Assembly: GCA_964621395.1 (NCBI GenBank)
Contig: CAZULS010000002.1
Location: 170,252-234,251, forward strand
Source of the DNA: an uncultured Candidatus Saccharibacteria bacterium
GTDB lineage: Bacteria > Patescibacteriota > Minisyncoccia > Phycocordibacterales > JACNGX01
Direction: 5' to 3'
Length of the DNA stretch: 64,000 nucleotides
The position numbers and the translations under genes were made by a program. The notes beneath the pieces were generated by a model. It saw only the letters and a program-made list of their open reading frames with translations, made no database searches and was not told where the DNA came from. Each line of letters opens with the position of its first letter. Position 1 is the first letter of the stretch. Positions 59,311 through 59,819 of the stretch are shown here, in pieces.

Positions 59311-59318
59311 ATGTATGC

Positions 59319-59515
59319 AGGACCTATCTCATATTAAACCGCTCCAAAGAGTATTTCTCCCACTTCGTGTGGAGGCTTGGCAGTTCTCGCCCCGAAAATT
59401 CGACTGCGCCTTGCTTCTCGACATCACCGTACAAGTAGTACGCTTCGGTCTCCGAGACTGCAGCTCGCACGAATTTTCGGGGCGATAACAAGCCATTTAA
59501 TATGAGATAGGTCCT
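59319..59515. mobile_element. MITE-like foldback element, family B copy 2
   Basis: 197 bp with TIRs ggacctatctcatattaaa / tttaatatgagataggtcc. It begins 8 nt upstream of the atpE start codon, inside the atp operon. Confidence 0.65.
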
Positions 59516-59599
59516 GTTGATTAAGTAATAAAAGCGTATGATACGCACGGAAACGTGTCTCATGCGGGACACACGCTTTCGTTCGTACCACTCCTTCTT

Positions 59600-59785
59600 A
59601 GAGCCTGTTCACAATCTCAACGGAATTGAATGAATAAAAATTTCCTTGTCGGCTGATATGCCCATATACCGGCTGCAAATCGCTCAAAACGTCTCGAAGT
59701 ACGAGAGTACTCCATCAACGTTTTTTACGATTTTCGCTCGGTATATGGGCATATCACGCACGACATGAGATTATGAACAGGCTCT
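59600..59785. mobile_element. MITE-like foldback element, family A copy 4 (inverted orientation)
   Basis: 186 bp, the reverse complement of copy 3 (96-98 percent identical by eye). It is in tandem with the family-B element inside the atpB-atpE spacer. Confidence 0.7.
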
Positions 59786-59819
59786 TAAAAAAGAAAATGC
59801 TGATAATCCAAAGGGATTA

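Follow-up and report, generated by a model that had tools for sequence, protein, structure and literature searches.

Two families of hairpin-forming inverted repeats, probably miniature transposable elements, in the atpB-atpE spacer of an uncultured Candidatus Saccharibacteria bacterium

Several described classes of short bacterial repeats resemble two repeat families, here named A and B, that lie between atpB and atpE in the F-type ATP synthase operon of an uncultured Candidatus Saccharibacteria bacterium. The analyzed stretch of DNA, hereafter the window, comprises 64,000 nt (GenBank assembly GCA_964621395.1, contig CAZULS010000002.1, positions 170,252 to 234,251). The Correia elements of Neisseria (CREE/NEMIS) are the best analogue for the behaviour of A and B in the atp transcript. 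They are 100-160 bp long, have inverted repeats and a TA duplication, lie between co-transcribed genes and form long hairpins in mRNA, although their sequences are unrelated to A and B. Cleavage by RNase III, sites for IHF and the creation of promoters are documented for Correia elements. Miniature inverted-repeat transposable elements (MITEs) derived from the IS5 family (IS1031, IS427) and their eukaryotic counterparts, the Tourist elements, share with A and B a short non-coding body and inverted ends of about 20 nt starting from GAG or GG. Their duplications are also alike (3-bp TNA, as TTA or TAA, in A and 2-bp TA in B), as are their multi-copy state, insertion polymorphism and mini forms consisting of the ends only. 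A differs from them in that its 19-nt end is identical over many phyla, and both A and B differ in having an interior that forms a long hairpin with compensatory changes and conserved loops; no matching autonomous insertion sequence (IS) or transposase was found.

Other palindromic repeats are less similar. ERIC/IRU, RUP and BOX elements are, like A and B, imperfect palindromes in the intergenic regions of operons, but their sequences and hosts differ, and ERIC and BOX are without the clear signature of inverted repeats plus duplication found in A and B. REP and REPIN sequences are also hairpin palindromes and are abundant intergenically, where they occur as doublets; unlike them, A and B have terminal inverted repeats and target duplications, and no RAYT gene was seen in the window. 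Rickettsia palindromic elements (RPE) can land in coding sequence and be translated, which may be compared with one A copy in a response-regulator gene (A2) and one B copy that is open in one frame (B2); the coding overlaps of A and B, however, are terminal and incidental.

We analyzed the atpB-atpE spacer at 59311-59819. A preliminary description of this DNA had given its length as about 510 nt and had placed in it two different MITE-like elements in tandem, with B at 59319-59515, 8 nt from the annotated atpE ATG, and A at 59600-59785. The spacer measures 509 nt and the coordinates match; repeats, inverted-repeat ends, predicted folds and empty sites in related genomes bear out the presence of two distinct elements. 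They are located as follows.

59319-59515, minus strand: element B, copy B3, 197 nt, AGGACC...GGTCCT (AGGACCTATCTCATATTAAA ... TTTAATATGAGATAGGTCCT); the gene strand has the slightly more stable fold
59600-59785, minus strand: element A, copy A4, 186 nt, AGAGCC...GGCTCT (AGAGCCTGTTCACAATCTCA ... TGAGATTATGAACAGGCTCT)
59598-59600 (left copy) and 59785-59787 (right copy): target-site duplication of A4, 3 bp, TTA on the plus strand and TAA on the gene strand

With the TAA duplication set apart, A4 proper reads GAGCC...GGCTC. Its 'forward', more stable strand is the strand of the atp mRNA. We consider it probable, at roughly 80%, that A and B are non-autonomous, hairpin-forming DNA transposons (MITEs) that inserted independently into the atp spacer. 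Both are short and non-coding, and show terminal inverted repeats, target duplication, dispersed copies and empty sites. The label MITE was adopted because of the structure, the target duplication and the insertion polymorphism; no autonomous partner was found.

Relatives were defined as the contigs encoding the closest AtpB homologues, and a second set was collected via CtpA (loci are given L numbers). Homologues of AtpB and CtpA place the window in Parcubacteria (Patescibacteria); the closest named ones belong to Candidatus Yonathbacteria, at 63-68% identity. The atpB-atpE spacers of the relatives are listed with their AtpB identity to the window.

L119 and L120, AtpB 96%: spacer of 123 nt, without A and B
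L121-L128, AtpB 89%: spacer of about 116 nt, without A and B
L129, AtpB 84%: spacer of 122 nt, without A and B

Empty sites, which the preliminary description had proposed looking for in related genomes, are thus present as spacers of 116-123 nt containing neither element. A4 was missing from the atp spacer of all relatives L119-L131, and B3 from that of L119-L129. The non-element sequence of the window's spacer is collinear with the spacer of L129, indicating that A and B are clean insertions. The window reads ...CATTTTCTTTTTTAA, GAGCC...A...GGCTC, TAAGAAGGAGTGGTACGAACG..., where L129 reads ...CTTTTCTTTTAAAAAGAGGGGAGTGGTACGAACG..., and the empty sites for A4 are TTTTAAAAAGAGG (L129) and TTTTTTTAATG (L119). 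The A4 target is TTTTAA^G, in which TAA was duplicated, and it lies just after the U-tract of a terminator-like hairpin. B3 is bordered by AATCAAC on one side and by GCATACAT / GCATACATATGG on the other, where L129 has AATCAATTCATTTTTTATGG. At this same B3 site, another relative (L131, AtpB 84%, from a TARA sample) carries a 48-nt mini-B, AGTACCTATCTCATATTGAAACAAATCGTTTGATGTGATATGGGTCGC (about L131 3088-3135), made of two B ends with the interior deleted. The spacer would thus originally have been about 120 nt long, with A and B inserted independently.

These comparisons also bear on whether the spacer is a native regulatory leader of atpE that never received insertions. Conserved, structured sequence does exist in the spacer, namely a terminator-like hairpin and the block TTTCCGTGCGTATCATACGCTTTTATT, but it lies outside A and B. 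Moreover, the relatives lack A and B, the window has further copies of both, and A is found across many phyla in unrelated contexts. The preliminary description had asked whether relatives hold the same sequence as a conserved, non-repetitive leader; their sites are empty instead. The native leader is refuted by these empty sites, and we give it practically no chance.

We searched the window for further copies using repeat finding and profile searches, and found four A copies and three B copies within the 64 kb. The copies outside the atpB-atpE spacer are as follows.

13476-13660, plus strand: A1, 16 nt upstream of the start codon of a P-type ATPase gene
29210-29396, plus strand: A2, in a response-regulator gene, two codons ahead of its stop
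52898-53083, plus strand: A3, 2 nt past the atpC stop codon, inverted relative to A4
972-1164, minus strand: B1, in the TAA stop codon of ctpA with TA duplicated, 16 nt upstream of the DUF1653 start codon
28175-28371, minus strand: B2, with divergent ends CGGAGCCAGTCTCA and CG/CG flanks, upstream of a Bact_hydrolase gene, about 12 nt before its true start

A copies are 185-187 nt and B copies 193-197 nt long, and the terminal inverted repeats are about 20 nt in both families. The B ends have the consensus ag(g/a)acc(t/c)atctca(t/c)attaaa. With up to three mismatches, the A end was matched seven times in the window and the B end four times, compared with 0.00 and 0.02 matches, respectively, expected from shuffled sequences. 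Open reading frames (ORFs) crossing the copies are only spurious read-throughs, and both families are non-coding. A3 (aligned at 52893-53086) and A4 are 96% identical over 194 nt, indicating that A was recently active in this genome. The B copy at 972-1164, already named in the preliminary description together with a perfect hairpin gacgaaaacgtac-gata-gtacgttttcgtc, is present, as is that hairpin. B2 is a third copy and is more divergent than the others.

All seven copies lie in same-strand gene arrays, at or beside stop or start codons, a preference explained by targets that contain TAA or TAG. B1 provides a second empty site. In L136, whose CtpA is 84% identical, 10 nt (GATAAATAAATCAATCATTATG) separate the ctpA stop from the DUF1653 start, and comparison with this locus places B1 inside the former TAA stop, with TA on each side. 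The insertion turned the ctpA stop from TAA to TAG (window 1163-1165). A2 changed the end of its host protein from ...ALKK* to ...ALRACS*, in which both RACS and the new TAA stop are supplied by the inverted repeat (29382-29399). The following response-regulator gene begins 13 nt beyond A2. The annotated DUF1653 ORF has its first ATG (980) inside B1, and its true start is probably at 956. The ORF at 27696-28388 spans all of B2, and its Pfam Bact_hydrolase domain begins at residue 72; its first approximately 70 residues are almost certainly element-encoded and a gene-calling artefact, with the true ATG near 28162.

Repeats can be misplaced or collapsed during assembly, and the 509-nt spacer might be such an artefact. 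Both elements are repeats, and short-read contigs from the same sample break there. The proteins encoded by three Logan contigs from sample SRR8146440 are identical to proteins of the window: L001 ends 26 nt inside A4, L134 ends 27 nt inside B1, and L137 (5,997 nt) starts in the atpE-atpF spacer, with its other end, as calculated from its span, near A3. Ends of this kind show that the repeats break assemblies, and they also show that two of the junctions, from atpB to A4 and from ctpA to B1, exist in an independent assembly. In addition, B3 shares only 83% identity with its next-closest copy, and several positions distinguish A4 from A3; both B3 and A4 are therefore unique sequences. A4 has the expected TAA duplication at its flanks, the spacer is collinear with those of relatives, and L131, an independent assembly, has a B remnant at the exact site. 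An assembly artefact is extremely unlikely on this evidence.

We next consider the structure of the elements. Each copy folds as one long hairpin of about 90 bp. The minimum free energy (MFE) z-scores of six copies fell between -8.5 and -15.8 on either strand; those of the seventh, A2, were -10.2 for the forward strand and -3.3 for the reverse strand. The predicted folds of the two atp-spacer elements on the mRNA strand have about -107 and -98 kcal/mol. For A, a structural alignment was made of ten Patescibacteria-type elements, comprising the four window copies and six found in other genomes, and 20 of its 57 predicted pairs showed double compensatory changes. Among the three B copies, double compensatory changes were found in 24 of 71 pairs; the apex stem, for example, is GACGAAAACGTAC/GTACGTTTTCGTC in one copy and GACTGTGCCGCAC/GTGCGGCACAGTC in another. 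The internal loops of A have fixed sequences (CGAGCGAAAAT..., ...ATTTGCAGCC and UGA/GAG loops). Thus, the hairpin has clearly been kept across divergent copies of both families. Rfam 15 reported only tRNA when the whole window was searched at the gathering threshold; over the spacer at E up to 10, the best hits had E-values of 0.7-10, far under the cut-offs, and six loci with other A-type elements gave no element match.

Conservation of this kind may be read in another way, namely that A and B are former MITEs now selected for a host function as RNA or single-stranded DNA hairpins, either as modules for mRNA processing or stabilisation, by which the expression of atpB would be uncoupled from that of atpE-atpC, or as insulators where operon genes adjoin closely. 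The strong covariation of the arms is consistent with such a role, as are loop sequences conserved in divergent Patescibacteria (GAGCGAAAAT / ATTTGCAGCC and tandem G-A loops). G-U pairs favour one strand of A; in a hand count, in which many cells are inherited and not independent, one strand had about 47 cells with G-U pairs and about 13 with C-A mismatches. Both atp-spacer elements put their more stable strand on the mRNA, and all three B copies share one orientation, each 8-16 nt upstream of a start codon. However, short spacers place any insertion beside a start codon, and three B copies are too few for statistics. A is antisense to its neighbours in three of the four window copies and in several elements elsewhere, the closest relatives have neither element at the atp site, and end-only mini forms exist (L131, L055, L047). 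We found no consistent rule for the orientation of A relative to neighbouring genes, either in the window or in other genomes, and this mixed orientation means that the strand asymmetry does not track host transcription. The favoured strand of A was therefore rejected as a mark of host transcription or of a cis-acting RNA role. Selection for a host function seems unlikely, and transposition of non-autonomous elements is preferred as the explanation of both families.

The two families are built alike. B has the same layout as A, with ends of the form GRRCC...TCTCA, a long imperfect hairpin, purine-rich internal loops and a GTAC-loop-GTAC apex, and both have a side arm of 30-40 nt before the right (3') end. 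The B2 end GGAGCCAGTCTCA resembles the A sequence GAGCCTG-TTCATAA-TCTCA minus seven bases. These likenesses in sequence and layout suggest that A and B may be of common ancestry. A profile of A searched against B gave its best match at B2 with E = 0.4, which is not significant. The B pattern had no match in viral contigs; in metagenome scans a first B pattern gave no match and a second one gave two chance matches. B appears to be restricted to this lineage, having been seen in this genome and as the mini copy in L131.

Family A is much more widespread. Its 19-nt end is AGAGCCTGTTCAYAATCTC; for the superfamily, the end can be written (A)GAGCCTGTTCAYAATCTC. We scanned one genome per species for the right end GAGATTRTGAACAGGCTCT and found it in at least 114 genome loci, compared with about 9 expected by chance according to our own estimate. 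The hosts include alpha-, beta- and gamma-Proteobacteria (the Pseudomonas oryzihabitans group, Chromobacterium, Mycoavidus, Brachymonas, Lampropedia and Rickettsiales), Patescibacteria (Moraniibacteria and Parcubacteria), Ruminococcus (Firmicutes), Elusimicrobiales and Bdellovibrionales, among others. Finished genomes rich in the end are those of Pseudomonas oryzihabitans, Chromobacterium haemolyticum, Mycoavidus cysteinexigens, Nitrococcus mobilis and Ottowia caeni. A minority of the matches lie inside genes and are due to chance. An inverted partner was located 49-265 nt away in at least 64 distinct cases. The central GTAC...GTAC hairpin was found in 11 of the 54 longer members, compared with 0.9 expected. 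The shortest members (L055, L047 and L050) are 49-66 nt long and scarcely exceed two inverted ends, paralleling the mini-B of L131.

When the elements were taken as GAGCC...GGCTC, identical 3-bp flanks were present in 30 of 55 (TTA in 17, TAA in 10, TGA in 2 and TCA in 1). In 2000 trials with randomly re-paired flanks, 15.9 pairs were identical on average and never more than 27. The base before the duplication was C in 23 of the 30 and the base after it was G in 20, indicating that the A superfamily targets CTNAG and duplicates TNA. In B the duplication is 2 bp, seen as TA at B1; B2 has CG on both sides and B3 is degenerate.

Three matches of the A end in viral contigs all belonged to one phage coding sequence and were due to chance, and a BLAST search of plasmids with element A and a 34-nt end returned nothing meaningful. 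Family A was not described in any paper found when the literature was searched for its end sequence, for IS1031/IS427 MITEs, or for MITEs of Patescibacteria or Mycoavidus, and no paper in the library searched quoted the A end in a bacterial context.

These data suggest how the elements may have moved. A would integrate at CTNAG and duplicate TNA, here TAA, through a cut-and-paste DDE transposase acting in trans, possibly of the IS5 family (IS1031/IS427) or of PIF-Harbinger type, and B would make a 2-bp duplication (TA). A CTNAG target with TNA duplication is characteristic both of IS1031-group elements within the IS5 family and of the Tourist MITEs of plants (PIF/Harbinger). The ends of A presumably resemble those of the IS5 family (GAG.CTG...). 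From this target and duplication pattern, we infer that A may be a bacterial 'Tourist-like' MITE with a transposase of that type. The IS427-group elements in a table that we consulted mostly have 2-bp duplications, with one of 4 bp.

Several observations weigh against the interpretation of A and B as MITEs. Its assignment to IS5/IS1031 is tentative and follows from the pattern of target and duplication and from the presumed likeness of the ends. We found no ORF for a transposase partner beside unpaired A ends, and a Pfam search of 40 window ORFs showed neither a transposase nor a RAYT-like gene. When 1071 ORFs from loci totalling about 850 kb were clustered all against all, the recurrent families were ABC transporters and LysR regulators only, and no autonomous element was found in plasmids. 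The flanks of the B copies also fit imperfectly: B2 is flanked by CG and not TA, and B3, with flanks CA/TG, does not have an intact duplication. The window and L131 have B, but the nearer L119 and L121 do not; this distribution would require that B inserted more than once at one site, that it was lost precisely or that recombination took place. The covarying stems and conserved internal loops exceed the needs of transposase binding at the ends.

Some of these observations would be expected if the elements were REP/REPIN-like or IS200/IS605-type palindromes, moved as single-stranded DNA hairpins by an HUH tyrosine transposase (RAYT/TnpA). Such a mode of transfer accords with the long, near-perfect palindromes and covarying arms, with G-T/G-U pairs that favour one strand, with the failure to find a DDE partner and with the unclear duplication at B3. 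Elements mobilised by HUH enzymes are not known to make target duplications or to carry terminal inverted repeats of this kind. In contrast, A has a significant 3-bp TNA duplication at CTNAG, B1 has a clean TA duplication, the ends of both families are genuine terminal inverted repeats, about 20 nt long, and no RAYT-like gene was seen in the window. We therefore regard HUH-mediated transfer as very unlikely, and the MITE interpretation with a putative DDE-type transposase is retained.

We examined how the insertions are positioned relative to the genes and native signals of the atp operon. The eight F-type ATP synthase genes, all encoded on the minus strand, are listed here with the native elements of the spacer.

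59820-60704, minus strand: atpB (F0 subunit a; PF00119)
59800-59823, minus strand: native terminator-like hairpin with U-tract, overlapping the atpB stop codon
59534-59580, minus strand: native spacer segment between the elements, a variable covarying hairpin followed by TTTCCGTGCGTATCATACGCTTTTATT (a small hairpin plus T-tract)
59095-59310 as annotated, minus strand: atpE (F0 subunit c; PF00137 in relatives); the likely start is the second ATG, at 59295
58398-58889, minus strand: atpF
57938-58342, minus strand: atpH
56269-57795, minus strand: atpA
55213-56205, minus strand: atpG
53694-55091, minus strand: atpD
53087-53611, minus strand: atpC

The hairpin at 59800-59823 is kept with compensating changes in L119, L121 and L129, and the TTTCCGTGCGTATCATACGCTTTTATT block is identical in relatives with 84-96% AtpB identity. 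At the atpE start, all relatives retain the nucleotide sequence ATGGAAGAAGGAATTATG, in contrast to the stretch before the first ATG, which shows no such conservation. GAAGGA precedes the second ATG by five nucleotides. The conserved ATGGAAGAAGGAATTATG and GAAGGA suggest that atpE probably starts at 59295 and that its ribosome-binding site is native and not part of the element. B3 is accordingly 8 nt from the annotated atpE start and 23 nt from the likely one. The preliminary description had held that the sequence immediately 5' of atpE is provided by the element; this is correct for the annotated ATG but not for the likely Shine-Dalgarno sequence and true start, GAAGGAATTATG, which are native. 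Both insertions miss all three native modules (the hairpin after atpB, the mid-spacer block and the atpE start), and the elements appear to be tolerated because they were inserted between native signals and not in them. The native structured sequence of the spacer is itself a candidate attenuator or processing site that could set the ratio of atpB to atpE.

No sigma-70-like promoter was detected in the spacer, making it plausible that the elements are co-transcribed with the atp operon despite the conserved terminator-like hairpin after atpB. No U-tract follows either element on the gene strand, and the elements were therefore rejected as intrinsic terminators. The read-through atp mRNA would carry both elements as hairpins of about 90 bp, which are likely substrates of RNase III, and, by analogy with Correia elements, cleavage by this enzyme would be their most likely fate in the transcript. 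The net effect on the operon is probably small, with the elements acting as passengers and not as a regulatory device; tolerated passengers on the atp transcript are what they most likely are. Our understanding of the ATP synthase operon is unchanged by the insertions.

A3 and A4, an inverted pair with 96% identity, bracket atpE-F-H-A-G-D-C (6.5 kb) in the manner of composite-transposon arms or of an invertible segment. The gene order in L129 is the same as in the window, and no inversion was seen. The nearest relative of the window changes along the operon. For atpB, nucleotide identity is 81.9% with L121 and 77.5% with L129, whereas for atpF, atpH and atpA it is 80.9, 70.6 and 80.9% with L129 and 68.5, 52.5 and 75.0% with L121. 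This switch indicates a recombination breakpoint between atpB and atpF in one lineage, and it would fit an exchange of the cassette between A3 and A4. A broader proposal is that A and B form one ancient, cross-phylum class of hairpins whose interior, with its covarying stems, conserved tandem G-A loops and GTAC apex, is selected for a fold of one strand, as RNA or single-stranded DNA, in the service of transposition or of a host role at operon junctions, with the A3/A4 pair serving as portable homology for the cassette. If so, A3 and A4 would act as homology or as a composite-transposon-like unit for exchanging or inverting the ATP synthase cassette. We regard this proposal as speculative and unlikely.

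Insertion of this kind is known and is comparable to that of Correia, ERIC or RUP elements in operons. What lifts the present case above the routine is the streamlined host, an A end that is identical across phyla and the maintained hairpin interiors. With seven copies of two families in 64 kb, streamlined Patescibacteria genomes can evidently bear dense non-autonomous mobile DNA, and insertions have occurred within the narrow gaps of essential operons, at stop codons and only a few nucleotides away from start codons. Such repeats break short-read assemblies at the atp operon and mislead gene callers, as seen in the false starts at B1 and B2 and the altered C-terminus at A2. The A superfamily, with an identical 19-nt end in several phyla, TNA duplication and a maintained interior, is a lead for transposon biology.

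Other small repeat families occupy the atpE-atpF spacer (58890-59094) and many further intergenic sites. GC-rich hairpins with T-tracts occur on the plus strand at 58925-58941 and 59035-59059. The window also contains TTTATCGTTTATAGTTT runs, AGCTTATAGCTGATAGCTTTTAGC, GCCCGAGCAC...GTGCTTTAGGGTC, TACCAAGGTTNAACCTTGGTA and TGTCATCCCGCACTTGATGCGGGATC (families D2-D5, D8, D10 and D14). Between 46996 and 50305, five consecutive ORFs of 166-223 aa without a Pfam match are encoded on the plus strand in otherwise minus-coded surroundings, beside tRNA-Ala (50525-50599), and they may constitute a small integrated island.

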